A DNA stretch of 58,083 nucleotides from the IMG/VR virus record IMGVR_UViG_3300045988_084814, one strand, 5' to 3'. The position numbers were made by a program, and so were the translations under genes. Each line of letters starts with the position of its first letter. Within the stretch, counting starts at the first letter, position 1. Shown piece after piece: positions 4,857 to 57,821 of the stretch. The notes below the pieces were generated by a model. The model saw nothing but the letters and a program-made list of their open reading frames with translations. It made no database searches and was not told where the DNA came from. Origin of the DNA: a virus.

Positions 4857-4956
4857 CGGCTATATAATGCTTATTATGTGCAAGGATATAAAAAAACAAG
4901 GCTAAGAAGTAAAACGGCTATATGAGGCTGTAGCAAAGAGATGAACAGACACAAAA

Positions 4957-4987
4957 AAAGAGACTTTTTACAGTCTCTTTTCTTTTC
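4957..4987. terminator. Bidirectional terminator between convergent genes
   Basis: Stem AAAGAGACT/AGTCTCTTT, flanked by an A-run on one side and a T-run on the other. Confidence 0.7.
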
Positions 4988-5077: not shown

Positions 5078-5779
5078 TTAAACGAAAAAAACTGGGTTAT
5101 CGTTATCAAAAAGGTTGCAAAAAATTTTAGTATCCTTATCAATATATCGGCATCTCACTTTATTAAACTTTCTAAATCCTTTTTTAGTATATTCATATTT
5201 TTTATTTATATTATATGATATGCTACACAAATCGTCAGGTACAAAAATCTCAGGAACATAAGCATCTTTTTTTAATATCCCTATTTCGTTCTTTTGTTGT
5301 AACTCAACAATTTCAACATCATCAACTCGTAACAAATCTTCATAACGCCCTAATGACAAAAATTTGCGTGGAAATTTCAAAGATGTATAGACCACTTCAA
5401 GGTCATCATCATCTACAGTTTGTATATAAATTTCAAGTTGTAAATTTGCTAAATAATAAAATGTTTTAGGCGATTGAACCCAGCCGGTATAACTGTTGAC
5501 GTTTTCATCTTCGACGATTACAGACCACCTTTTTTTGATTTCTTCTGTGATTGTCTTAAATTTCGCACCGCCTTGCCATTGCATTTTTAGCTCTTTATTT
5601 ATGTAACCTTTTCCCGATATAAAAAAATTCATATTGTGATATTCATGCCAGCCGCAGGCGTTATGTACCATACCTGACACTGTGGAAAATGGTGGCAAGG
5701 GCAAAATCTCAGGAGAGCAAGACAAACTTACAGGAAACCTTGCGGTTTCCATGTAAGCGTTTAATTTAACTGCTTTCAT
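5078..5779 (-). CDS. Solitary Cas5-like (RAMP) protein resembling subtype I-B Cas5
   Basis: Start is the MKAVKL ATG with SD AGAGGT. The N-terminus KAVKLNAYMETARFP...PLPPFSTVSGMVHNACG matches the Cas5 signature (PxPPxST-h-G-h). LSLGRYEDLLRVDDVEIVEL matches the Cas5 LGRxED strand. No other cas gene or CRISPR array is present in the genome. Confidence 0.55.
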   Translation of the reverse strand: MKAVKLNAYMETARFPVSLSCSPEILPLPPFSTVSGMVHNACGWHEYHNMNFFISGKGYINKELKMQWQGGAKFKTITEEIKKRWSVIVEDENVNSYTGWVQSPKTFYYLANLQLEIYIQTVDDDDLEVVYTSLKFPRKFLSLGRYEDLLRVDDVEIVELQQKNEIGILKKDAYVPEIFVPDDLCSISYNINKKYEYTKKGFRKFNKVRCRYIDKDTKIFCNLFDNDNPVFFV

Positions 5780-5789
5780 TGATTTACCT

Positions 5790-5981
5790 CTATTCTGCTT
5801 CACATTCAAAACCTAAAAGAATATCTTTATAAAGTTCTTCACTGATATTCTCTTCTAAAAGAGGTTTTCTATTCTCAAATCCAAGTTCCGCATCAAGTGA
5901 AGCGTCAATTCCCTCTAATGCTTTTTCTCTGCTAAATCCCAACTCCATAACCTCATTTAATAAATCAATAGTTTTTTTCAT
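5790..5981 (-). CDS. Small, very acidic hypothetical protein (63 aa)
   Basis: ATG with SD AAGGTG. It ends 11 nt before the Cas5-like start. D/E-rich throughout and ends in ECEAE. Confidence 0.5.
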   Translation of the reverse strand: MKKTIDLLNEVMELGFSREKALEGIDASLDAELGFENRKPLLEENISEELYKDILLGFECEAE

Positions 5982-6017
5982 AATAGTCACCTTTTAACCT
6001 TTCTTTTATTTTTTATA

Positions 6018-6046: not shown

Positions 6047-6217
6047 TTACCAAAAAATTATATTTCCTTTTTTGTCCACATTGTAATGCCACCATTTGCC
6101 CGACTGATACATGATACAAACATTACCGTTTTCGTCAATCCATGTTTTTTTAATTTTGCCGTGTTCCCAGTTTGATGTTTGGGAACGATGAAAATTGTAA
6201 AGTTCTTCTGCTGCCAT
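6047..6217 (-). CDS. Small hypothetical protein (56 aa)
   Basis: SD GGAGGG. Below the ORF-track cutoff. Sequence MAAEELYNF...KWWHYNVDKKGNIIFW. Confidence 0.45.
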   Translation of the reverse strand: MAAEELYNFHRSQTSNWEHGKIKKTWIDENGNVCIMYQSGKWWHYNVDKKGNIIFW

Positions 6218-6243: not shown

Positions 6244-6285
6244 GAGCAAGCCGGGGAATCGAACCCCGGAAGTGCCGACCTTGCT
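6244..6285 (-). ncRNA. tRNA-like acceptor/T-arm minihelix (no D or anticodon arm)
   Basis: Minus strand reads AGCAAGG-TCGGCACTTC-CGGGG-TTCGATT-CCCCG-GCTTGCT-C. That is 6 of 7 acceptor pairs, a 5-bp T stem and a consensus T loop. It starts 1 nt after the upstream stop codon. Confidence 0.5.
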
Positions 6286-6286
6286 A

Positions 6287-6727
6287 TTAAATTGCTTCTT
6301 TTTCTTTGCTAATTTCTGCCGCAATTATTCCCTGCTCGAGAAAGTAACGAAGTGCGCTATCGCCGAAACGCTGTATATAATATTCCGCAAGCTCCGAAGT
6401 GCTAAAAGCATCTAACGCTGTGCCGACATCGCTATATATTCCGCTATATGTTCTTCGTCTACTTGAAAGTGCCTTATCAACTGGATTTTTTAACTCTTCA
6501 TCTTTAACTCCTACAAGCCTATCAGCTCGCATTGTTCTAGTGTGTTCGTTTCCGCTCTCGTCGGAAATAATAACGCATTTAACGCTTTTTCCACTTTTTG
6601 TTAGCTCTACGCTTTTGACTGTGGAAGTGTAACCAAAATTCCAAACCGTAATCATTCCCGGCTTTAATTCTGCCGCCGGAATTGCTTTTTGCGGTGTGTG
6701 TATTCCTTGTAATTTAATTGTTCTCAT
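6287..6727 (-). CDS. Hypothetical protein
   Basis: Start placed at MRTIKL with SD GAAAGGA. The track ORF begins 12 nt upstream, inside the SD. Confidence 0.6.
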   Translation of the reverse strand: MRTIKLQGIHTPQKAIPAAELKPGMITVWNFGYTSTVKSVELTKSGKSVKCVIISDESGNEHTRTMRADRLVGVKDEELKNPVDKALSSRRRTYSGIYSDVGTALDAFSTSELAEYYIQRFGDSALRYFLEQGIIAAEISKEKEAI

Positions 6728-6750
6728 AGTATCAACCATCCTTTCATTGT

Positions 6751-6812
6751 GTGCCCTGTCTCGTCAGTGCAGGTGGGGCAATTCCTACAGACCGCCGCGT
6801 GGCGGTTTCGAC
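6751..6812 (-). ncRNA. Hammerhead ribozyme, type II topology
   Basis: Minus strand reads GUC-GAAA-CCGCC(ACGC)GGCGG-UC^UGUAGG(AAUUGCCCCA)CCUGCA-CUGACGA-GACAGGGCAC. All invariant core positions are present. Stems I and III are closed and stem II is open. Loop I UGCCC is complementary to GGGCA in the 3' tail. Confidence 0.75.
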
Positions 6813-7147
6813 TAAAAGTCAATGCTTGTATATACTTCTAATATCTCACGCCATTTGTTTTCCTTATCACAATCAAAATTAAGGTCTTTAATATGGAAAA
6901 TTGCATATTCTCCATAATTCTCTCTTAAATCTTGCAACTGATTGTACACTGTTTCAAATTCTTCTAAGTCATCAATATTGAGAATATAACGCTTGTGTTC
7001 CGGGTTGCGAATTATGTAATTTTCTTTCGCTTGAACATATGACGAAAATAATGCTTCAACTTTAACTTTGCTTTTTCTGTCATCCTGTGTTTTTCTATCA
7101 ATCATGTAAACAACTGCCCATTTCATAAAATCTGTATAACTCTTCAT
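6812..7147 (-). CDS. Hypothetical protein
   Basis: First gene of the minus-strand operon. Start placed at MKSYTD with a GGTGA SD; the track start is at 7159. Confidence 0.6.
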   Translation of the reverse strand: MKSYTDFMKWAVVYMIDRKTQDDRKSKVKVEALFSSYVQAKENYIIRNPEHKRYILNIDDLEEFETVYNQLQDLRENYGEYAIFHIKDLNFDCDKENKWREILEVYTSIDF

Positions 7148-7196
7148 ATCAATCACCATAACCTTTCTTGCTATTCGCTTTCCTTATGTTGTATAT

Positions 7197-9849: not shown

Positions 9850-10230
9850 ATGACAAACAAAGAAAAGTATGCGAAAGATTTATACAGTATCTTTTTAAGA
9901 AGTTTTGGAGTGGATGAAGAAAATAAGCCTTTTTGGTGCAGTGAAAAATCCTGTGGTAGACAATGCCAGTTTTATCATAGCAAAATAGATTGTAAAACAC
10001 TTGCAAAACAGTGGCTTGATGAAGAATATAAAACAGATTGGTCAAAAGTACCTGTCGATACTCCAATTCTTGTAAAAGACGAACTGGCACCAAAATGGAT
10101 ACATAGACATTTTGCAAAATATGAAAATGGAAAAGTTTTCGCATGGGCTAATGGCTCAACTTCATGGAGTGCGAGAGACTCTGTCTGTGTGGATTGGGAA
10201 TGTGCCCGACTATGTGAAGATAATAAATAG
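9850..10230 (+). CDS. Hypothetical protein
   Basis: ATG after AAGGCGGTGG. 126 aa. Confidence 0.55.
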   Translation: MTNKEKYAKDLYSIFLRSFGVDEENKPFWCSEKSCGRQCQFYHSKIDCKTLAKQWLDEEYKTDWSKVPVDTPILVKDELAPKWIHRHFAKYENGKVFAWANGSTSWSARDSVCVDWECARLCEDNK

Positions 10231-10385
10231 AACTGAGGTGATAAAGAATGGCAATAAGAGCACCAACAATTTAAAGTGAAACATTTTTTTGAAACTTGTT
10301 TAACAGTTATTTTTTTCATATCTTCGTATCTCTTAAAAAATATTACATATCACATCCGCGAGGCAATAACAGTCTTGCGAAATAA

Positions 10386-10457
10386 TGGGGTATCGCCAAG
10401 AGGTTAAGGCATAGCACTTTGACTGCTACATCATGGGTTCAAATCCCATTACCCCAG
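10386..10457 (+). tRNA. tRNA-Gln (anticodon UUG)
   Basis: Cloverleaf: acceptor TGGGGTA/TACCCCA, anticodon stem TAGCA/TGCTA with loop CTTTGAC, T arm ATGGG-TTCAAAT-CCCAT. No encoded CCA. Confidence 0.85.
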
Positions 10458-10711
10458 TTTTGCAAGATGCCATCTTTGTTTTTCTTCTTGCAAAATCGCG
10501 GAGAAAAACTCCTTTCCCACACTAGCGGAATGCTGTTAAGAGCCATCGCACGGCTCGGTGTGGTTGTTCGGGTGTCTATCCCACGATGCCCGAACTTACA
10601 TACTTTTTCCGTACTGGACTAATGTAGTTCCATTACAACTTTCACACCCACCCATAACACACAGGTGCTTGCATACCATCTTAAAAGCCTATACAGAGGT
10701 GTATGCAACTT
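10458..10711 (+). other. Highly structured 254-nt spacer between the two tRNAs (possible ncRNA)
   Basis: Perfect 10-bp hairpin TTTTGCAAGA/TCTTGCAAAA. Further stems: GAGCC/GGCTC, GTTCGGG/CCCGAAC and TTGCATA/TATGCAA. No credible ORF. Confidence 0.35.
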
Positions 10712-10783
10712 TGGCATATAGTTCAGTGGTAGAACGCCTGACTGTTAATCAGGATGTCGCAGGTTCGATACCTGCTATGCCAG
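10712..10783 (+). tRNA. tRNA-Asn (anticodon GUU)
   Basis: Acceptor TGGCATA/TATGCCA, D arm AGTTCAGTGGTAGAAC, anticodon stem CCTGA/TCAGG with loop CTGTTAA, T arm GCAGG-TTCGATA-CCTGC. Confidence 0.9.
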
Positions 10784-10891
10784 TTATGTCAACACTTGTG
10801 CAGAAACCAATGTCGGCAATGGAAGAACAGAAACTAGCTGTTGACATTATTAAAAAATGCCCACGCAAAAATACTAGTTACGACGCGGGTG

Positions 10892-11050
10892 GTAGATAGT
10901 GACGGAATAGGTAAACGCTTAAGCATAAGGCAACCACGCTTTGGTTAGAAGAAGGTTATCGAATTAAAAAGGCGATAAATGAACCTGAAACGGTGTTACC
11001 CGTTGTGAGAAGTCGTTGCTATGTGTGGTGCAAATCCACACCTATCTACT
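10892..11050 (+). ncRNA. tRNA-like element: an 8-bp acceptor-like stem and a 6-bp T arm enclosing a ~120-nt structured insert
   Basis: GTAGATAG pairs with CTATCTAC. T arm is GTGTGG-TGCAAAT-CCACAC. The interior has its own hairpins (AACCA/TGGTT, TTATCG/CGATAA, AACGG/CCGTT). No canonical D or anticodon arm could be drawn. Confidence 0.35.
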
Positions 11051-11117
11051 TATCCTCAAAACTATCGAGGATAGCTGATAAACAGGCTTTTTAAAGTTCC
11101 TCATGACAATATGAAGA

Positions 11118-11164
11118 AGAGTAGACAGATGGTGTTTTATTCGGTTCGATTCCGGACTACTCTT
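11118..11164 (+). ncRNA. Second tRNA-like acceptor/T-arm minihelix
   Basis: AGAGTAG-(15 nt)-TTCGG-TTCGATT-CCGGA-CTACTCT-T. Perfect 7-bp acceptor stem and a consensus T loop. Confidence 0.45.
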
Positions 11165-11203
11165 TACTAAATAAACTTTAAAATATTAGAAAAGGAGTAA
11201 ACA

Positions 11204-11722
11204 ATGGATAATTTACAGCAACACAAACAGCTTTTACAACAAATACATGATACATATGTCAAGAAAAATCATGATTATGGCGATAGCTTTAGTCGTTCAT
11301 TTAAGAAATATGGATTAGTAGCGGCTATGGTTCGCATGGAAGATAAATGGAACAGGCTTGATAATATGGCATTAGGAGCAGAACAGAAAGTTGCTGGCGA
11401 AACTATAAGAGATACACTGTTAGACCTTGCTGGATATTGCGTTATGACAACGATGGAACTGGACAGAGAGAAAGATAACGCAAATCAAAAGGCATTTGAA
11501 GAACAGGTTCGGGATGAATATACCGAAGTTTTTGGAGAAGATAACGAGAACGAAAATGAAGAAACAGATACCTCTAATAAAACATCAGCGGAAAAGAGTT
11601 CTATTGATGTAGGCAAGGTAATGGCTTTACATAATGCCAAATGGTCGCAAGCAAAGATTGCTGATGAAATGGGGTGCTCGCAGGGGCGGATTTCGCAGAT
11701 TATCAAAGAATACAAACAGTGA
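11204..11722 (+). CDS. DUF1599-like domain fused to a C-terminal HTH
   Basis: SD AAAGGAG. N-terminus has KKNHDYGDSF...MVRMEDKWNRL. C-terminus WSQAKIADEMGCSQGRISQIIK looks like a sigma region 4-type HTH. Confidence 0.55.
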   Translation: MDNLQQHKQLLQQIHDTYVKKNHDYGDSFSRSFKKYGLVAAMVRMEDKWNRLDNMALGAEQKVAGETIRDTLLDLAGYCVMTTMELDREKDNANQKAFEEQVRDEYTEVFGEDNENENEETDTSNKTSAEKSSIDVGKVMALHNAKWSQAKIADEMGCSQGRISQIIKEYKQ

Positions 11723-13822: not shown

Positions 13823-15031
13823 ATGGCTGATTTGAAAATATTTACAGAAAATATAGAACATGAAGCATTAAATCAGATATATACACTTGTAAAACAGCCA
13901 GCATTTTCGGATTGCAAGATAAGAATTATGCCAGATGTTCATGCAGGAGCAGGGTGTGTTATAGGGTTTACTGCTGATTTAGGAGAAAAAGTAATACCGA
14001 ACATTGTTGGAGTTGACATAGGCTGTGGGATGCTTACTACAAACCTGGGGAATATTGATATTGATTTTGAGAAGCTAGATAACATCATTAGAGAATATGT
14101 TCCAAGTGGTAGAAAAGTTCATGAAGAAGAAAACTCATCTGTCGCAAGCGATATTATTGAAAAATTGAATTGCAAGGAACAGTTGAAAAATATAAATTGG
14201 TTGAAAAGAAGTTGTGGCACGCTGGGAGGCGGCAATCATTTTATCGAAGTTGATAACGATAGCAATAATAATAAATATCTTATTATTCATTCGGGAAGCA
14301 GGAATGTCGGAAAGCAAGTTGCAGAAATATATCAGCAAATGGCGATTGACGATATTTCGGGAAAATCAAACTTTAAACAAGATAGTAAGAAATTGATTGC
14401 TGAATACAAAAAATGCAAAAGAGAAAGAGAAATTAGCAAGGCTATCAAAGAATTAAAGCAGTCCTACGAAGCAAATACAACTAAAATCCCTAGAGAGTTA
14501 TCATATCTTGTTGGAAAACATAGAGAAATGTATTTGCACGATATGAAATTATGTCAAGAGTTTGCGAAAATTAACAGAAGAGCCATTCAGAGCATTATTT
14601 GTTACTATATGGGCTGGAAAGTTACAAAAGAAACGGAACGATTTCAAACAATTCACAACTACATTGAACACGATACAAATATTGTTCGTAAAGGTGCTAT
14701 TTCTGCAAAAACAGGCGAAAAGGTACTAATACCAATAAACATGCGTGACGGTTGCATTTTGGGAATTGGCAAAGGAAATGAAGATTGGAATTATTCAGCA
14801 CCGCATGGAGCAGGGCGAACAATGAGCAGGTCAAAAGCAAAAGAAAGCATTTTGCTAGAAGAGTATCAAAAAGCAATGGATGGAATATTTACAACATCTG
14901 TAAATACATCCACGATTGATGAAAGTCCTATGGCATATAAAACAATGGATGAAATAATTGGAAATATAAAAGATACTGTTGAAATAGTTGACATTATAAA
15001 ACCGATTTACAATTTCAAAGCAAACGAATAA
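13823..15031 (+). CDS. rtcB: RtcB RNA ligase (3'-phosphate/5'-hydroxyl)
   Basis: Motifs present: MPDVHAGAGCVIG, GVDIGCGM, GGGNHFIE, HSGSRNVG, APHGAGR. 402 aa. Confidence 0.9.
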   Translation: MADLKIFTENIEHEALNQIYTLVKQPAFSDCKIRIMPDVHAGAGCVIGFTADLGEKVIPNIVGVDIGCGMLTTNLGNIDIDFEKLDNIIREYVPSGRKVHEEENSSVASDIIEKLNCKEQLKNINWLKRSCGTLGGGNHFIEVDNDSNNNKYLIIHSGSRNVGKQVAEIYQQMAIDDISGKSNFKQDSKKLIAEYKKCKREREISKAIKELKQSYEANTTKIPRELSYLVGKHREMYLHDMKLCQEFAKINRRAIQSIICYYMGWKVTKETERFQTIHNYIEHDTNIVRKGAISAKTGEKVLIPINMRDGCILGIGKGNEDWNYSAPHGAGRTMSRSKAKESILLEEYQKAMDGIFTTSVNTSTIDESPMAYKTMDEIIGNIKDTVEIVDIIKPIYNFKANE

Positions 15032-15097: not shown

Positions 15098-15134
15098 AGC
15101 ACCTTTGCTGGAGAAAGCGAGGTGCTTCTTTTTT
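15098..15134 (+). terminator. Terminator-like hairpin whose 3' arm contains the TerL SD
   Basis: Stem AGCACCT/AGGTGCT followed by TCTTTTTT. The TTG start of TerL lies at the end of the T-run. Confidence 0.5.
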
Positions 15135-16890
15135 GGCATCTAAATATCTTAAAGGAACAGTTCAAAGTTATGAAAATTACATAGAGAGAAACGACATTGA
15201 AGAACAGGTAATCGATGCTTACATACAAGCCGTAGCGGTTGCCTTAAGGACAGAACATGATATTGACTACGGATTGAAAATATCAGCAAGAACAAAACAA
15301 CTCATAGCTCAATTTGTTAAAGAACATACAGGCGGCAGAGTTGCAGACCTAGAAGTGTATGCCGGAGAACACGATACGACATACAAAGTGCTTCAACAAT
15401 TCTATGATGTTTTGATGTATGAATCAGCCTATCTTGTGGACAGCTTTTTTTATTACATTGAAATTGATGAAAAAGACCCATATAAAAGATTTTACTTCCC
15501 GAGATATAAAGTGTTACAACCTGTAGTCGGAGCATACCAGGAGATTTATGATGGAAAATTGGATTTTCTGTCGGTATCACAGCCAAAGAGAACAGGAAAA
15601 ACTACAGGCGGTCTGAAATTAGCACAGATGATGGGCGGACGCGACCCGGACGGAAGTATATTCGGTGTTGGAAAAGGCGAAGGACTTGTTAAGAGATTTT
15701 ATGGCGGTCTGTTGCAAGGATTTGAAACAGAAAGCACGTACAACAGATTCTTAAGTGTTTTTCCGGAAGCAACGAAGATAGGCGAAAAGGACTATAAAAG
15801 TGCTGAAAATCTATCAATCGACCTTAAAAGCAAAAATATCTTCCCAACATTTACCTGTAGACCTATTGATGGTGCAATCGTAGGATGTACTGAAGCAAAT
15901 GTGCTTGTTTATATTGATGACTGCGTTAAGAACCATGAAGAAGCACGAAACAGAGACCGCTTAGAGTTCTTATGCGAGAAAGTCACAGATGACGTTTTAG
16001 GACGTAGGCTAGAGGGCACGCCTATTATTATACAAGGAACAAAATACAGCCTATATGACCCTATTACAGCGTTACAGAACAAAGCTGATGAGTTAGGGTG
16101 GCGATGGAGAGAAGTTGCGGTTCCGGCACTTGACCCTATTACAGATGAAAGCAACTGGGAGATTTACCGCAAAGATAAAAAAGGCTTGCGAAAAATATTC
16201 ACAACTGATTATTACCGTAAGGAGCGTAAGCTTGTATCAGAAGAAACATGGGCGGCGGAGTTTCAGCAGGAGCCTTACGAAGCAAAAGGACGTATGTTTG
16301 CAGAAAGCGAGCTTAATTACTTTGAGGAACTTCCTGTTGACAGAGAGCCGGACGCTATTATGGCGGCTTGTGACAGCGCAGATAAAGGCGACGATAGCTG
16401 CTCAATGCCTGTTGGCTACGTTTACGGCAATGAAGTGTACATAGTTGATGTTGTGTTTGACAATGCCGGAACGCAGTTTACCAAGCCGGAATGTGCCAAT
16501 ATGCTTATTAAGCACAACGTAAAGACGGTTACATTCGAGAGTAACAGTGCCGGAGAATATTTTGGTCGAGATGTAATGGACATTGTAAAAGAGCAAGGTG
16601 GAAGGTGTAGCGCGCGGTTCAAATTTAATTGTTCAAACAAAATAACTCGAATGGAAAATGCGAGAGATAATATAATTCGTGATTATTATTTCCGCGATTT
16701 CAAGAAAATGAACAGACAGAGTCAATATTACAAGTTTATGAAAGAACTTACTACTATGACAAGAAGTGGAAAAGTAAAACATGATGATGCACCGGATTCG
16801 GTTGCTTTGTTTGAAAACGAGATGCGAAGCGGAACGCAAGCAAAGGTAGAAGCGACTGTAAATCCTTTTAGTAGCGGTAGGAGGTATTGA
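15133..16890 (+). CDS. terL: Terminase large subunit
   Basis: Walker A-like QPKRTGKT, Walker B-like LVYIDD, C-terminal nuclease motif HDDAPDSVA. TTG start 8 nt after GAGGTG. Confidence 0.85.
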   Translation: MASKYLKGTVQSYENYIERNDIEEQVIDAYIQAVAVALRTEHDIDYGLKISARTKQLIAQFVKEHTGGRVADLEVYAGEHDTTYKVLQQFYDVLMYESAYLVDSFFYYIEIDEKDPYKRFYFPRYKVLQPVVGAYQEIYDGKLDFLSVSQPKRTGKTTGGLKLAQMMGGRDPDGSIFGVGKGEGLVKRFYGGLLQGFETESTYNRFLSVFPEATKIGEKDYKSAENLSIDLKSKNIFPTFTCRPIDGAIVGCTEANVLVYIDDCVKNHEEARNRDRLEFLCEKVTDDVLGRRLEGTPIIIQGTKYSLYDPITALQNKADELGWRWREVAVPALDPITDESNWEIYRKDKKGLRKIFTTDYYRKERKLVSEETWAAEFQQEPYEAKGRMFAESELNYFEELPVDREPDAIMAACDSADKGDDSCSMPVGYVYGNEVYIVDVVFDNAGTQFTKPECANMLIKHNVKTVTFESNSAGEYFGRDVMDIVKEQGGRCSARFKFNCSNKITRMENARDNIIRDYYFRDFKKMNRQSQYYKFMKELTTMTRSGKVKHDDAPDSVALFENEMRSGTQAKVEATVNPFSSGRRY

Positions 16891-39927: not shown

Positions 39928-40131
39928 ATGCCGAAGATTTCTCTTGAAGCAGTAAGAGTAAATGCAAAAATGACACAGAAAAACTGGGCTAAATTGCTTG
40001 GTGTTTCGGTAGCAACAGTGATTAACTGGGAAAAAGGGAATACTGAGCCGAGCTTATCTCATTTGAAAGAAATGAGCCGTTTATCAGGCATTCCGATGGA
40101 TTTTATTTTTGTACCCGATAAATCCAATTAA
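39928..40131 (+). CDS. Cro-like XRE-family HTH regulator
   Basis: HTH segment MTQKNWAKLLGVSVATVINWEKGNTEP. 67 aa with SD AAAGGAG. Confidence 0.75.
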   Translation: MPKISLEAVRVNAKMTQKNWAKLLGVSVATVINWEKGNTEPSLSHLKEMSRLSGIPMDFIFVPDKSN

Positions 40132-40162
40132 ATTGAATTTTAAAGGTCGGAAAGGAGATAAA

Positions 40163-40906
40163 ATGAACGATTTAAAAATTTTCAATAATGAAGAGTTTGG
40201 AGAAATCCGAACAGTAGTAGTAAATGAAGAACCAATGTTTTGTTTGACTGATATTTGCAAAGCGTTGGAAATGAGCAACCCGACAATGGTTGCACAGAGA
40301 TTGGATGATGATGAACGCACTAAGTTAGACTTAGGGCGTCAGGGAGAAACAAATTTCATAACAGAAAGCGGTTTATATGCAGTCATATTGAGAAGCGATA
40401 AACCGAATGCAAAGAAGTTTCGTAAGTGGGTAACATCAGAGGTACTTCCATCAATCAGAAAAAACGGCGGTTACATAGCAGGACAGGAAAACATGACGGA
40501 TGACGAACTCATGGCAAAAGCACTTATGGTGGCACAGAATAAGATTGCTGAGAGAGACAAACAGATTGAACGCATGAAACCGAAAGAAATATTTGCTGAC
40601 GCAGTATCGGCTAGTGAAACATCAATCCTTGTCGGAGATTTAGCAAAGCTGATTTCTCAGAACGGTTACAAAATCGGACAAAAGAGGTTGTTTGAATGGT
40701 TAAGAACGAATAACTTCCTTATTAAATGCGGTTCATCAAGAAATATGCCACAGCAGAGATTTGTTGAACAGGGATTGTTTGAAGTCAAAGAAAGCAACAT
40801 TCAGAACCCCGATGGCAGTGTGAGAATAACACGCACAACTAAGGTCACAGGCAAAGGGCAGATTTACTTTGTTAATAAGTTTATGAAAAGTGAGGTAACA
40901 GCATGA
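40163..40906 (+). CDS. Antirepressor (Bro-N domain plus KilAC/ANT C-terminal domain)
   Basis: Motifs present: FGEIRTVVVNEEPMFCLTDICKAL, KFRKWVTSEVLPSIRKNGGY. SD AAAGGAG. Confidence 0.8.
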   Translation: MNDLKIFNNEEFGEIRTVVVNEEPMFCLTDICKALEMSNPTMVAQRLDDDERTKLDLGRQGETNFITESGLYAVILRSDKPNAKKFRKWVTSEVLPSIRKNGGYIAGQENMTDDELMAKALMVAQNKIAERDKQIERMKPKEIFADAVSASETSILVGDLAKLISQNGYKIGQKRLFEWLRTNNFLIKCGSSRNMPQQRFVEQGLFEVKESNIQNPDGSVRITRTTKVTGKGQIYFVNKFMKSEVTA

Positions 40907-56426: not shown

Positions 56427-56456
56427 CATTCTTTTTATATAAAGGGGGATTTAGTG

Positions 56457-57821
56457 ATGGAATGTGTTGCGTATATGAGAGTATCAACAGAAAAACAAGC
56501 AGAAGAGGGCAATGGTCTTGAAAGTCAAAAAAGAGACATTGAGAATTACTGTAAGAAAAATGAGTATATAATTACGGATTATTATATTGATGATGGCTAC
56601 ACAGGAGCAAACATGGATAGACCGGAGTTACAGCGACTTATTAGCGATTGCGTTGCAAAAAGAATAAAATGTGTAGTTGCTTTTAAATTAGATAGGTTGT
56701 CACGAAGTATGGTCGATGGCATTTATCTGATTGAAAGAGTATTTCAGCCGAATAGCATCCTATTTAAGTGTGTGCATGACAGTATAAGCTATGACAGTCC
56801 GATGGAGCAAGCCTATACTCAAATGATGGCTGTATTTGCACAGCTTGATAAGAATACCATGTTATTAAGAATGCGTGGCGGCATGCTGGAAAGAGTAAAA
56901 CAAGGTTATTGGATGGGTGGAGCAAACACACCTTATTGCTATTTTTACAGTAAAGAAACAGGAACGCTTGTACCTATACCCGAACGAAAAAAGCAAGCAA
57001 ACGAAGCAATTGACTTGTTTTTACAAGGCTATTCAGATGCCAAAATTTGTAATATGTTAGGCTTCAAAAGTGAATTTGTTGTAAGGCGTTTACTTACAAG
57101 CAAGGTCAATATAGGATATATACCCTACAAAGGTAAAATCTATAAAGGCAGGCATGAACCAATTTTTGACCTTGATAAATTTAATTTAGCACAGGAAGTT
57201 AGGAAAAATCGAAGAACAAAGAAAACGACTTGTATAAACAAAGAGCCAAATCTACTTACCGGATTATGCTATTGTGGTGTATGTGGGTGTGCTATGCGTT
57301 ACCAAAAATGGACACATGGAAAGCATAAGATATATTGCATGTCTCGAAACAAGTCTATGAGTTATCTGCCTAACTACAACTCTAATTGTAATAATTCACT
57401 TGAATGGGCTGTCGATATTGAAAAACAAGTTGAAGAAGAAATAATGAAAATATCATTGAATTTGTCATCAGAAAAACCGGTTGCAAAACAAAGCAAAATT
57501 GAAATTTTACAATCGCAGATTAAAAAAGAAGAAAATCGTAGAAAAAGATTTTTTGACTTGTATGCTGATGGGAACGATGATGTATTGCTGAGTATAAAAG
57601 AAACTAACAATACAATTAAGGATTTGAAAGAACAGCTTGAAAACGAAATATCAAATGTCAATATAAATAAGAAGAAAAGCATTGCCTACAAAAATATAAA
57701 AAAAATTGCCGATGTTTGGGACAGCATCGACAAAAGAGATAAAAACACTATACTTAAGAGTATAATTGATAAGATTGTTATAGTCAATGGAAACATAGAA
57801 ATACAATTAAAGAATTTTTAG
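56457..57821 (+). CDS. Large serine recombinase (integrase)
   Basis: Catalytic N-terminus AYMRVSTEKQ...DRLSRS, recombinase domain, zinc ribbon CYCGVCGCAM...YCMSR, C-terminal coiled coil. 454 aa. Confidence 0.9.
   Translation: MECVAYMRVSTEKQAEEGNGLESQKRDIENYCKKNEYIITDYYIDDGYTGANMDRPELQRLISDCVAKRIKCVVAFKLDRLSRSMVDGIYLIERVFQPNSILFKCVHDSISYDSPMEQAYTQMMAVFAQLDKNTMLLRMRGGMLERVKQGYWMGGANTPYCYFYSKETGTLVPIPERKKQANEAIDLFLQGYSDAKICNMLGFKSEFVVRRLLTSKVNIGYIPYKGKIYKGRHEPIFDLDKFNLAQEVRKNRRTKKTTCINKEPNLLTGLCYCGVCGCAMRYQKWTHGKHKIYCMSRNKSMSYLPNYNSNCNNSLEWAVDIEKQVEEEIMKISLNLSSEKPVAKQSKIEILQSQIKKEENRRKRFFDLYADGNDDVLLSIKETNNTIKDLKEQLENEISNVNINKKKSIAYKNIKKIADVWDSIDKRDKNTILKSIIDKIVIVNGNIEIQLKNF

Follow-up and report, generated by a model that had tools for sequence, protein, structure and literature searches.

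A conserved tRNA-like minihelix at gene junctions of a phage accessory operon and its possible role as an RNA-processing mark

The accessory operon and its hammerhead

The window, meaning the whole 58,083-nt stretch of viral DNA that was analysed, comes from a temperate gut phage with a large serine integrase at 56454-57821. The phage also encodes RtcB plus its own tRNAs. An operon on the minus strand begins with a 115-aa ORF without family match (6812..7159, minus) and continues with an upstream cassette gene of 150 aa, also without family match (6287..6739, minus), a downstream cassette gene of 56 aa (6047..6217, minus; ATG 6217-6215), and a small ORF of 66 aa (5790..5990, minus). The last gene of the operon is Cas5b-like (5078..5809, minus), and the operon ends with a terminator-like hairpin and T run (4953..4984, minus). 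The Cas5b-like protein was matched over its full length by TIGR01895 (E 1.9e-19, 70 bits, under the curated cut-off) and also by PF09704 (E 5e-4). It is a solitary Cas5b-like protein and a candidate anti-CRISPR factor, and because this gene marks it so, we regard the operon as accessory and anti-defence.

The intercistronic junction between the first two genes was found to hold a probable type II hammerhead (RF02276) at 6750..6813 on the minus strand, with 33.2 bits and an E value of 2e-4. The match falls short of the gathering score of 37, spans the whole model, and preserves the core. The hammerhead starts inside the TAG stop codon of ORF 6812-7159, sharing its final two bases, and the predicted cleavage site falls after GUC, near 6789. 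The first-pass annotation had reported a hammerhead about 470 nt upstream of the element described below; it was recovered as a sub-gathering Rfam Hammerhead_II match at a distance of 465 nt. The hammerhead is conserved in more than 40 loci. Homologues were found by BLAST 183-549 nt upstream, at a distance of one cassette, in 46 of the 137 class-1 copies of the element, and were undetected upstream of the other 91. A hammerhead at every junction was rejected on this count and because none of five relatives was positive by Rfam.

Anatomy of the minihelix

At the next junction, at 6244..6285 on the minus strand, lies a class-1 tRNA-like minihelix, which was assigned from the sequence as read, from the covariance model R1, and from conservation in IMG/VR. 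The element is 42 nt long and reads, from 6285 to 6244, AGCAAGG-TCGGCACTTC-CGGGG-TTCGATT-CCCCG-GCTTGCT-C. These parts correspond to the 5' acceptor strand (6285-6279), a 10-nt linker (6278-6269), the 5' strand of the T stem (6268-6264), the T loop (6263-6257), the 3' strand of the T stem (6256-6252), the 3' acceptor strand (6251-6245), and a discriminator C (6244), all on the minus strand. Six of the seven acceptor positions are Watson-Crick pairs (A-U, G-C, C-G, A-U, A-U, G-C), while position 7:66 is a G.G mismatch; most class-1 copies are mismatched at this position. The T stem has five pairs, one C-G and four G-C, and the loop GGTTCGATTCC agrees with the tRNA T-arm consensus GGTTCRANYCC. 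Together with the 5-bp T stem and the 6/7 acceptor stem, this loop gives an architecture of the t-element type, which is conserved across classes.

The TAA stop codon of ORF 6287-6739 occupies 6289-6287, and a single nucleotide (6286) separates it from the start of the minihelix at 6285. On the other side, C73 is followed by UAA, with no CCA at positions 74-76. The AGGAGGG ribosome-binding site of ORF 6047-6217 begins 13 nt past the minihelix (6231-6225). A minimal RNase P substrate is a coaxial acceptor/T-stem stack of about 12 bp with a T loop and a single-stranded 5' leader; the window copy has a stack of 7+5 positions, interrupted by the mismatch at 7:66 and by a 10-nt bulge where the two stems meet. 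Model R1 scored it at 68.8 bits (E 1.6e-19) and found no other copy in the window. The sequence, the pair counts, the canonical T loop, the discriminator base, and the 1-nt spacing from the stop codon all agree with what had been claimed on first reading. The claimed absence of a D arm and an anticodon arm was likewise borne out by ARAGORN and Rfam, with only 10 nt between the 5' acceptor strand and the T stem.

Chance and known RNA families

We applied a strict scan that required 5/5 Watson-Crick pairs in the T stem, at least 6/7 in the acceptor stem, a linker of 3-26 nt, and the motif GTTCRANNC. One match was found in the window versus one in 1000 shuffled windows, and the minihelix is a non-chance element. 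Its folding energy (-16.5 kcal/mol, z = -1.4) was without significance. Folding z-scores ranged from -0.3 to -1.6 and are uninformative because the stems are short and GC-rich; it is conservation, not folding energy, that provides the real evidence against chance.

Rfam at gathering thresholds returned no match at 6244-6285, and its tRNA model returned none there even at E values up to 10. ARAGORN detected only the window tRNAs at 10386-10457 and 10711-10784 (tRNA-Gln and tRNA-Asn), so that a tRNA gene (RF00005) was rejected; both checks had been suggested on first reading. In E-value mode, only two Rfam families were matched at the element, both below threshold. The mascRNA-menRNA match (RF01684; 17.8 bits, E 2.5, gathering score 42.5) was judged a likeness of shape alone, and that of tmRNA (RF00023) was an 18-nt T-arm fragment with 15.4 bits against a gathering score of 47, with no tmRNA found by ARAGORN. 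An intrinsic terminator was also rejected, as no terminator-like site was present at 6244-6285, where the downstream sequence is CUAAAAUAAAA; the nearest such sites on the same strand are at 4984-4953 and 7264-7248. A consensus promoter site was absent at the element.

Conservation, distribution, and covariation

The 24-nt 3' half of the element was found exactly in at least 120 IMG/VR contigs. Among 185,579 species genomes it was present in four, where each copy was the minihelix itself in a phage context. It had been held on first reading that an exact match of the 3' half to a host tRNA gene would point to a plain attP core; no tRNA gene in the 185,579 species genomes carried it. Neither a relative of the 2.3-kb region nor the element itself was present in the deposited phage genomes of INPHARED. 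In bacterial contigs of 70, 91, and 177 kb, the element was intact with phage sequence on both sides.

Copies were aligned by building a model from the 42-nt copies and then performing a model-guided alignment. The 5' acceptor strand was no part of the search pattern. Within groups sharing an upstream gene, nucleotide diversity (pi) was 0.00-0.06 for the 5' strand, 0.22-0.28 for the adjacent linker, and 0.04-0.14 for the adjacent coding sequence, which supports the earlier claim of selection on the 5' acceptor strand. When loci were sampled by their upstream protein, 37 of 40 contained the element, 27 of them with the exact 24-mer, and over the T arm and 3' strand together pi came to 0.031. 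The linker varies from 9 to 19 nt across copies. Selection thus appears to act on the stems and loop while the linker drifts. Variants of the T loop lie mostly at positions tolerated in tRNAs, 57 (G to A) and 60, and the G.U alternations (A1/G1 opposite U72, U3.G70, G4.U69) are sensible solely on the RNA strand of the element.

In the class-1 alignment, 92% of cells pair and two changes are double-sided; covariation within the class is almost nil because the class is nearly invariant. Pattern scans that forced a one-sided T-stem change were used to seek compensation. They recovered one clean case, a G-C to C-G exchange in locus L171, and a compensated distant relative, L168. Uncompensated changes were G.G (L169), G.A (L174), A.C (L128), and an A.A lineage present in four contigs. 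The search for compensatory substitutions proposed in the first-pass annotation therefore gave a weak and mixed outcome, with two to three compensated against four independent uncompensated changes.

Placement at gene junctions

Placement was counted over 107 distinct contexts. In 86 of these, the end of the upstream stop codon falls no more than 2 nt to either side of nucleotide 1 (-2 to +2), and the distance never exceeds 12 nt; in 32 the stop codon overlaps the stem by 1-2 nt. The discriminator base is U in 92 contexts, C in 10, and A in 5, and position 74 is U in 102 and A in 5. CCA at 74-76 was found in none of the 107, and these contexts, like the window, therefore have the CCA-less form of an RNase Z precursor substrate. 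In 91/107 contexts, the start codon of the following gene is 20-59 nt away.

It was also noted that a hairpin begins 0-4 nt past N73 in 77 of 94 unique downstream contexts and is followed by a ribosome-binding site. The hairpins mostly have tetraloops on varied stems, such as CCUC/GAGG, CCCGG/CUGGG, and GUCCU/AGGGA. This covariation of the adjacent hairpin indicates RNA-level selection on the intergenic module. The window copy is without the small hairpin that is common in its relatives.

In all seven mapped sources, namely the window and six loci, the element shares its strand with the coding sequence of the flanking ORFs. It connects at least 25 protein clusters on its upstream side with at least 45 on its downstream side. 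One upstream gene is paired with five different downstream modules, and the reverse is also seen, with the breaks at the element. An ArdA cassette precedes it in one locus, L069.

A wider family of minihelices

The window contains a second tRNA-like minihelix with unrelated stems at 11118..11164 on the plus strand, reading AGAGTAG-15 nt-TTCGG-TTCGATT-CCGGA-CTACTCT-T. It is located after tRNA-Gln and tRNA-Asn and 40 nt ahead of ORF 11204. A pattern scan found it conserved in three other contigs, where the linker differs and the stems are unchanged; BLAST for this minihelix in the fetched loci returned no copies.

Among unique T-arm motifs outside tRNA genes, 140 of 194 had a complementary 5' strand nearby, compared with a mean of 40 and a maximum of 54 in controls with shuffled 3' strands. 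In 18 class representatives, 94% of cells pair versus 59% in shuffles, and the TTCGATT loop is present in 17 of the 18 versus approximately 30% of the phages' real tRNAs. The acceptor sequences of the classes are unrelated, and their common features are the generic ones of a 12-bp stack and a T loop. In relatives, several classes with different stems punctuate one operon; the order in locus L036 is gene, minihelix, gene, minihelix, gene, terminator, minihelix, terminator. The 7-mer GCTTGCT forms the 3' strand in class 1 and the 5' strand in class 2, and these two classes flank a cassette block. No account of tRNA-like minihelices at phage gene junctions turned up in full-text literature searches.

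A proposed processing mark

The comparative data support the minihelix as a selected tRNA top-half structure in the same operon as a hammerhead. We propose, at about an even chance of being right, that it acts as an RNase P/RNase Z processing mark punctuating the polycistronic accessory (anti-defence) operon and belongs to an undescribed family of phage minihelices. From the structure-compatible sequence, the conservation pattern, the placement, and the surrounding family observed above, we infer a series of cleavage steps and an effect on mRNA stability. The transcript would fold into a coaxial acceptor/T-stem stack of 7+5 bp capped by a canonical T loop. Host RNase P would cut where the stack begins on its 5' side, predicted in the window to be between 6286 and 6285, 1 nt past the upstream TAA. 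Host RNase Z would cut past the discriminator base, between 6244 and 6243 in the window; U at position 74 and the consistent lack of an encoded CCA would permit this cut. A CCA sequence blocks RNase Z, and CCA-less precursors can be cleaved by RNase P, which acts first on long leaders (PMC1874595).

The products would be separate mRNAs and a free tRNA-like RNA of approximately 42 nt. In most relatives, the downstream mRNA would start with 0-4 unpaired nucleotides and then the small hairpin, a 5' structure of a kind known to protect RNA 5' ends. In the window, it would begin 13 nt ahead of a strong Shine-Dalgarno sequence without a hairpin. One cassette upstream, the hammerhead would achieve the same separation by cleaving itself. 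Since the element is near-identical between phages whose flanks differ, it may also provide a homology patch for cassette exchange.

The processing-punctuation reading that had been put forward on first inspection is thus the best fit to the comparative anatomy, considering the stop-codon abutment, the lack of CCA, U74, the downstream hairpin, the further classes, and the hammerhead at the neighbouring junction, with cleavage as the predicted step. Bacterial RNase P was reportedly found to cleave acceptor/T-arm minihelices by McClain, Guerrier-Takada and Altman in 1987. Several observations count against a processing mark. Classical minihelix substrates are without the 9-19 nt bulge between the stems, and the near-invariance of the 24 nt and of TTCGATT across classes exceeds the recognition needs of RNase P and RNase Z. 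Further points against it are the weak within-class covariation, the non-significant folding z-score, the absence of the hairpin in the window copy, the uncompensated T-stem mismatches, the common 7:66 mismatch, and the hammerhead undetected in 91/137 copies.

Alternative explanations

The near-invariance just mentioned would fit a reading in which the released minihelix RNA, perhaps CCA-tailed, is itself the product and serves as a decoy or sponge for a host factor binding the acceptor/T-arm domain. Its target could be EF-Tu, the CCA-adding enzyme, or a defence nuclease or toxin directed at tRNA. Along with the exact 24-mer in at least 120 contigs and the preference for TTCGATT over the loops of real phage tRNAs, this is favoured by the anti-defence genes in the operon (the Cas5b-like gene, and ArdA in L069) and by the RtcB gene and phage tRNAs, which hint at a conflict over tRNA. 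We nonetheless consider a decoy, which the first-pass annotation had raised as an alternative, unlikely, given that the discriminator may be U, C, or A and that the classes share generic features only. The unrelated acceptor sequences imply that no sequence-specific target is mimicked, the missing anticodon arm rules out anticodon nucleases as the target, and the stop-codon abutment and downstream hairpin/RBS module are left unexplained.

The many protein clusters joined by the same element, the breaks located at it, and the GCTTGCT shared by the two classes that flank a cassette block would also be expected if selection were mainly at the DNA level, with the element being a recombination linker or site for swapping cassettes and its tRNA shape a leftover. 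The T-arm geometry of 5-bp inverted repeats and a 7-bp spacer, which we take to resemble the core site of a tyrosine recombinase, favours this as well. However, a tyrosine recombinase using the T arm as a core site was rejected: none was found among 20 of the larger ORFs, and the only recombinase seen is the large serine integrase. Identity would be enough for homologous exchange, with no need for complementarity; the 5' strand nevertheless keeps both its sequence and its pairing potential as the linker between the conserved blocks drifts, and both the T-loop consensus and the G.U alternations would be meaningless in duplex DNA. The covarying adjacent hairpin shows RNA-level selection, and cassette exchange is an expected side effect of any conserved junction. 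This explanation was ranked as slightly less probable than a decoy.

A lower probability still was assigned to a non-excised cis-regulatory structure, either a tRNA-like 3' cap left by a single RNase Z cut or a translation-coupled switch in which the 3' strand alternately pairs with the ribosome-binding site of the next gene. In the MFE fold of the 84-nt context in the window, UUGCUCU, drawn from the 3' strand and N73-75, pairs with AGGGCAA, a stretch overlapping the Shine-Dalgarno sequence of ORF 6047-6217. In locus L093, the only other context with this cassette, the pairing is retained through a C-to-U change. A ribosome halted at the abutting stop codon would also have to unwind the 5' strand. 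Against this reading, the alternative pairing occurs in only these two contexts with a z-score of -0.3, in most contexts an independent hairpin separates the element from the ribosome-binding site, and a stack of this kind should be cut by RNase P.

An attP core, or the decaying remnant of a tRNA gene without present function, is largely refuted and very improbable. In its favour, the phage is temperate with a serine integrase (6.5 kb from the element, counted across contig ends), the longer tRNA-like relative L168 has the same acceptor and suggests descent from a tRNA-like gene, and some copies have T-stem mismatches. Against it, the exact 3' half shows no host tRNA identity, conservation is far above that of the neutral linker, and the sole recombinase found is of the serine type. 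In the three bacterial contigs, all longer than the 57-kb phage, the element remains whole between an upstream hammerhead and a downstream phage cassette, which indicates that it is not split by integration.

Comparison with known systems

If the element is a processing mark, it has counterparts in animal mitochondrial tRNA punctuation and in MALAT1 mascRNA and MEN-beta, where an abutting tRNA or tRNA-like fold sets an RNA end through RNase P and RNase Z. The mitochondrial cut can fall within or right past a stop codon, and the 1-2 nt overlap of phage stop codons with the stem in 32/107 contexts is similar. Unlike mascRNA and mitochondrial tRNAs, the phage minihelices have no membership in those sequence families, occur in a bacterial/viral setting, and have an incomplete cloverleaf. 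The tRNA-like domain of tmRNA and the modules of bacterial Y-RNA (YrlA) also combine an acceptor stem and T arm with no anticodon arm. The minihelix differs from tmRNA in having no mRNA-like domain, tag, or G3:U70, from Y-RNA in having no Ro-binding stem, and from both in being embedded in an mRNA instead of forming a stand-alone gene. In T4-type phages, PeSL elements are short conserved non-coding modules that flank exchangeable accessory genes at recombination breakpoints; PeSL-type modules are promoters or terminators, whereas the minihelix is a tRNA-like fold with a T loop.

On the processing reading, the element is like the plant mitochondrial t-elements, which were found through the GGTTCRANYCC motif and whose termini match mRNA 3' and 5' ends attributed to RNase P and RNase Z (Forner et al. 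2007, PMC1920247). An excised t-element can persist and gain a non-encoded C or CCA (PMC1920247). Both kinds are non-canonical tRNA-like structures with the conserved T arm and an acceptor-like stem, located inside mRNAs beside coding regions. In contrast to t-elements, which are organellar and number few per genome, the phage family has more than 100 members in temperate phages of Lachnospiraceae-type hosts; a prophage of Clostridium sp. CAG:510 is one example of this phage type. Its members consist of acceptor and T arm only with a 9-19 nt bulge, abut stop codons, and are coupled to a hairpin/RBS module at mosaic cassette junctions. The ends of t-elements were mapped on mRNAs, whereas cleavage at the phage element is predicted.

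Hammerheads in prophages lie beside variable genes, ardA among them, and a role in dividing long phage transcripts into gene-length mRNAs has been proposed for them (Perreault et al. 2011, PMC3088659). They resemble the minihelix as cleavage-type small RNAs at intercistronic junctions of prophage operons with variable content, and one such hammerhead is present in the window operon itself. Unlike hammerheads, the minihelix has no catalytic core and would recruit host enzymes, leaving 5'-P and 3'-OH ends where a hammerhead leaves 5'-OH and 2',3'-cyclic phosphate.

Implications for phage accessory genes

A broader idea, which we offer tentatively and think rather unlikely to hold in full, is that phage anti-defence genes are mounted in a standardised 'plug-and-play' cassette system made up of minihelices, hammerheads, small 5' hairpins, and ribosome-binding sites, with the junction serving both RNase P/Z separation and crossover. 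Every gene would carry RNA-insulating punctuation of its own, and co-infecting phages would shuffle cassettes by crossing over at the near-identical junction. Engineered multigene arrays flanked by tRNAs or ribozymes would then have a counterpart in nature. As a further possibility, the excised, CCA-tailed minihelix may also act as a decoy against tRNA-directed host defence.

To our knowledge, tRNA punctuation has until now been known from mitochondria and a few eukaryotic non-coding RNAs. If the proposed cuts are confirmed, it would be extended to bacteriophages, which would use host tRNA-maturation enzymes and self-cleaving ribozymes interchangeably in insulating fast-evolving accessory genes. 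The family would then be a candidate for a new Rfam entry, and the combination of a T-arm motif, a nearby complementary strand, and no CCA would provide a handle for finding anti-defence cassette arrays in metagenomic phages. The minihelices would also offer compact natural parts of approximately 42 nt for multigene expression in Firmicutes.

A tRNA-like minihelix at a gene junction

We located the class-1 minihelix at 6285-6244 on the minus strand, where the sequence reads GCA ATT TAA T AGCAAGG TCGGCACTTC CGGGG TTCGATT CCCCG GCTTGCT C TAAAATAAAATTAGGAGGGCAAAAAG ATG. The TAA (6289-6287, minus strand) closes ORF 6287-6739 and the ATG (6217-6215, minus strand) opens ORF 6047-6217. As the first-pass annotation had described, six of the seven acceptor positions form Watson-Crick pairs, the T stem has five pairs and the loop is canonical. 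The remaining acceptor position, 7:66 (tRNA numbering), is a G.G mismatch, the T stem is made up of one C-G and four G-C pairs, and the canonical T-arm motif is GGTTCGATTCC. Only 10 nt take the place of the D arm, anticodon arm and variable region.

Neither ARAGORN nor Rfam run at gathering thresholds called the element, and their tRNA calls, tRNA-Gln (10386-10457) and tRNA-Asn (10711-10784), lay elsewhere. In the E-value mode of Rfam, the best matches were to the tRNA-like mascRNA model at 17.8 bits (gathering score 42.5) and to the tmRNA T arm at 15.4 bits. A strict minihelix scan returned one match in the window, the element itself, compared to one in 1000 shuffled windows; the folding energy of the window element is not significant by itself. 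The minihelix is real, and it lies outside every curated RNA family.

Two further features of the local sequence were noted. UUGCUCU, comprising the 3' acceptor strand and N73-75 (6251-6242), can pair on the minus strand with AGGGCAA (6228-6222), which overlaps the Shine-Dalgarno sequence of ORF 6047-6217. This pairing is retained in a related phage locus, L093, through a C-to-U change, and is statistically not significant. In addition, an AGCAAG-, AGCAAT- or AGCGAT-like hexamer ends several different upstream genes 10-13 nt before the true 5' acceptor strand (6296-6291, minus strand, in the window and equivalent positions in relatives). It could be an alternative partner for the minihelix 3' strand or a shared C-terminal ...LA... 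motif.

Conservation of the class-1 element

The 24-nt 3' half of the element (T arm and acceptor 3' strand) was found exactly in at least 120 IMG/VR contigs, most of them about 57 kb and similar in size to the window. Neither the region nor the element was found in deposited phage genomes. Among an independent sample of 40 loci anchored on relatives of the upstream protein, the element was present in 37 and the 24-mer was exact in 27, with a pi of 0.031 across the 24 nt. The 5' acceptor strand, which had been left out of the search pattern, was also near-invariant, (A/G)GCAAG. Within groups of loci having the same upstream gene, pi was 0.00-0.06 for this strand, compared to 0.22-0.28 for the adjacent 10-nt linker and 0.04-0.14 for the adjacent coding sequence. 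From this pattern, both acceptor strands, the T stem and the T loop are under purifying selection while the intervening segment drifts, as is predicted for a functional top-half minihelix; the selection on structure that had been proposed from a single sequence is upheld in this comparison. The class-1 linker ranges from 9 to 19 nt, and long linkers contain a small hairpin of their own (TGCA/TGCA, GGCA/UGCC or GGUA/UGCC).

Covariation was scarce within class 1 because the class hardly varies. Pair-preserving changes were G6-C67 to U.G (L009), a G-C pair at 1:72 (L159), U49.G65 (L145) and G50-C64 to C-G (L171), together with A51-U63 in a longer relative (L168). Uncompensated changes were recorded in L169, L174, L128 and an A.A lineage. 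One lineage still carrying the element (L128-L130, L172, L173 and L175) is mismatched in the T stem (A.C or A.A, with a C.A added in one case), and these copies are either tolerated variants or decaying. Therefore, we judge the fold well supported by its architecture and conservation pattern, but only weakly by classical covariation.

We searched 185,579 species, each represented by one genome, and found the 24-mer four times: in two uncultured Lachnospiraceae assemblies (one labelled MAG), Clostridium sp. CAG:510 and a Treponema MAG. All four copies are the same minihelix in a phage context. None of these species genomes carries the 24-mer inside a tRNA gene, so the exact host tRNA match that the first-pass annotation had held against its own reading was not seen. 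Three of the four contigs measure 70-177 kb, exceeding the phage length, and in these an intact element is flanked by the hammerhead on its upstream side and by a phage cassette on its downstream side; it is therefore not split by integration. The phage is temperate, having a large serine integrase/recombinase with Resolvase, Recombinase and Zn_ribbon_recom domains (56454-57821, plus strand) and a Bro-N/KilAC antirepressor (40109-40906, plus strand), which is consistent with the copies in the 70-177 kb Lachnospiraceae contigs. The serine integrase was the sole recombinase found, and no tyrosine recombinase was seen among 20 of the larger ORFs.

A larger family of minihelices

The class-1 element is a member of a larger minihelix family. 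A second minihelix in the window, AGAGTAG-15 nt-TTCGG-TTCGATT-CCGGA-CTACTCT-T (11118-11164, plus strand), has stems unrelated to class 1 and lies past both tRNA genes, with tRNA-Asn 330 nt upstream of it and a weakly sigma-70-like ORF (11204-11722) starting 40 nt downstream. Three other contigs (L165-L167) carry it with the stems unchanged but another linker. It was noted that a stretch of about 650 nt surrounding the two tRNA genes and extending beyond them (10458-11117, plus strand) holds no convincing ORF; Rfam found only the tRNAs there, and the region could hold further structured RNAs. Directly beside the tRNA genes of relatives, Rfam gave above-threshold matches to int-alpA RNA (RF02996; L046 2957-3023, L013 13574-13639, L036 2322-2389 and 1981-2048), with none in window 10200-11300.

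Further classes occupy the same accessory operon in relatives, including class 2, GCTTGCT...GCTGG/CCAGC...CGCAAGC (33 copies), GCGTGCT...TCCGG/CCGGG...AGCGCGG (15 copies), TCCGTTC...CAGGG/CCCTG...CGACGGA and AGTGACG...GGCGG/CCGTC...CGTCACT. Such minihelices lie at L036 7135-7176 and 7546-7585, L009 310-356 and 681-731, L028 5790-5833 and L033 5750-5790. The class-2 acceptor (GCTTGCT/CGCAAGC) is a strand-swapped class-1 acceptor, and class 2 sits at the operon end with a terminator-like hairpin on either side. This is the case in L036, where three genes are separated by class 1 and then class 4, and the third gene is followed by a terminator-like hairpin, class 2 and another terminator-like hairpin. 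A tRNA-sized relative (L168 7582-7655, minus strand) has acceptor AGCAAGT/GCTTGCT, T stem TGAGG/CCTCG and a 42-nt body; accepted as a tRNA by neither ARAGORN nor Rfam, it may resemble the class-1 ancestor.

A complementary 5' strand within 3-26 nt was found for 140 of 194 unique T-arm motifs outside ARAGORN tRNAs, compared to 40 on average and 54 at most when the 3' strand was shuffled. With class 1 excluded, the count was 42 of 95 against 19 in the control. Across 18 class representatives, which were recognised by pairing, 94% of stem cells are paired (59% in shuffles), and 7:66 is mismatched in eight (G.G, U.C, C.C or U.U).

Junction placement and the accessory operon

Placement was assessed in 107 distinct sequence contexts. 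The upstream stop codon ends -2 to +2 nt from nucleotide 1 in 86 (maximum distance 12 nt) and overlaps the stem by 1-2 nt in 32, and 91 have their next start codon 20-59 nt downstream. Most contexts have a U discriminator (92, with C in 10 and A in 5), and U also predominates at position 74 (102, the other 5 having A); in none is the discriminator followed by CCA. A hairpin of 3-8 bp, usually with a tetraloop, begins 0-4 nt past the discriminator in 77 of 94 unique downstream sequences; its stems vary and keep their complementarity (CCUC/GAGG, CCGG/CCGG, CCCGG/CUGGG, GUCCU/AGGGA and GCCA/UGGC). An A-rich spacer and a GGAGG ribosome-binding site come next, and this module likewise follows the internal minihelices of L036. 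The window copy is among the minority lacking the hairpin, with AGGAGGG beginning 13 nt past the element. Where mapped (the window and six loci), the element lies on its neighbours' coding strand.

The element sits in a minus-strand accessory block (7159-5078) between replication/nuclease and packaging genes, ending at a terminator-like site (4984-4953, minus strand). The last gene (5078-5809, minus strand) encodes a solitary Cas5b homologue, matching the type I-B Cas5b family TIGR01895 over its full length below the curated cut-off (E 1.9e-19). No other cas genes were seen alongside it, and as an anti-CRISPR candidate it may mimic a Cascade subunit. Between ORF 6047-6217 and ORF 5790-5990, inside the operon, is a strong match to sigma-70-like promoters (TTGAAA, 17 nt, TATAAT; 6046-6018, minus strand), so the genes downstream may also have their own promoter.

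Across relatives, the small-protein clusters joined by the element number at least 25 on the upstream side and at least 45 on the downstream side, with an ArdA gene immediately upstream in L069. One upstream gene is paired with five different downstream modules and the converse is also seen, the breaks falling at the element. The hammerhead mentioned in the first-pass annotation is probably genuine (6750-6813, minus strand; Hammerhead_II in Rfam E-value mode, 33.2 bits, E 2e-4, just under the gathering score of 37), with an intact core. It begins with the final two bases of the TAG stop of ORF 6812-7159 and stops 10 nt short of the ATG at 6739. Its 3' tail GGGCA may form a pseudoknot with the stem I loop UGCCC. 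In 46 of 137 element copies a homologue is found one cassette upstream, at a distance of 183-549 nt, and homologues occur in more than 40 related loci.

Alternative explanations and proposed processing

Processing punctuation, as proposed in the first-pass annotation, is the best available reading and is strengthened by the comparative data, short of proof. An uncleaved regulatory structure is suggested by a single alternative pairing that involves the window's Shine-Dalgarno region, but such pairing is limited to two contexts. A decoy RNA is disfavoured by the variable discriminator and by acceptor sequences unrelated between classes; the idea stays alive because the near-invariance of the 24 nt, and of the TTCGATT loop (17 of 18 class representatives compared to about 30% of the phages' real tRNAs), exceeds what processing enzymes should require. 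A purely DNA-level recombination site accounts for the mosaicism, but leaves unexplained why two conserved blocks are complementary when the linker between them drifts, and so too the G.U alternations, the T-loop consensus and the covarying adjoining hairpin; we favour the view that exchange there is a consequence, itself possibly useful. An attachment site and a tRNA remnant were both rejected, given the absence of the 24-mer from tRNA genes in the 185,579 species genomes searched and, for the former, an element that integration leaves intact.

RNase P identifies its substrates by the acceptor/T-stem stack and T loop, cleaving at the 5' end, and RNase Z cuts past the discriminator except where CCA follows. 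Under processing punctuation, RNase P cleavage would fall between 6286 and 6285 and give an upstream mRNA that ends ...UAAU-3'OH; RNase Z would cut between 6244 and 6243, so that 13 nt would precede the Shine-Dalgarno sequence in the downstream mRNA. For most relatives, this 5' end would consist of 0-4 unpaired nt and then the hairpin, and such ends protect bacterial mRNAs from 5'-end-dependent decay. Hammerhead self-cleavage would give the same outcome without other factors: stem III would be kept at the 3' end of the upstream RNA, and the downstream RNA would begin with a 5'-OH and stem I. The phage also encodes an RtcB RNA ligase (13823-15031, plus strand; PF01139, E 6.7e-58) directly upstream of the large terminase (15133-16890). 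RtcB joins 2',3'-cyclic phosphate and 5'-OH ends, exactly those that hammerheads make, and it may equally serve tRNA repair.

For precursors with long leaders, RNase P acts first, and CCA-less precursors are also cut by it (PMC1874595). Prophage hammerheads flank variable genes including ardA, and Perreault et al. suggested that long phage transcripts are thereby divided into gene-length mRNAs (PMC3088659); here, minihelices hold the equivalent junctions. Plant mitochondrial t-elements, found by a screen for the same T-arm motif, GGTTCRANYCC, mark mRNA ends through RNase P and RNase Z cuts (PMC1920247). We infer all RNase P, RNase Z and hammerhead cuts in the phage. The minihelix would work most like a t-element, and it is placed as the prophage hammerheads are.
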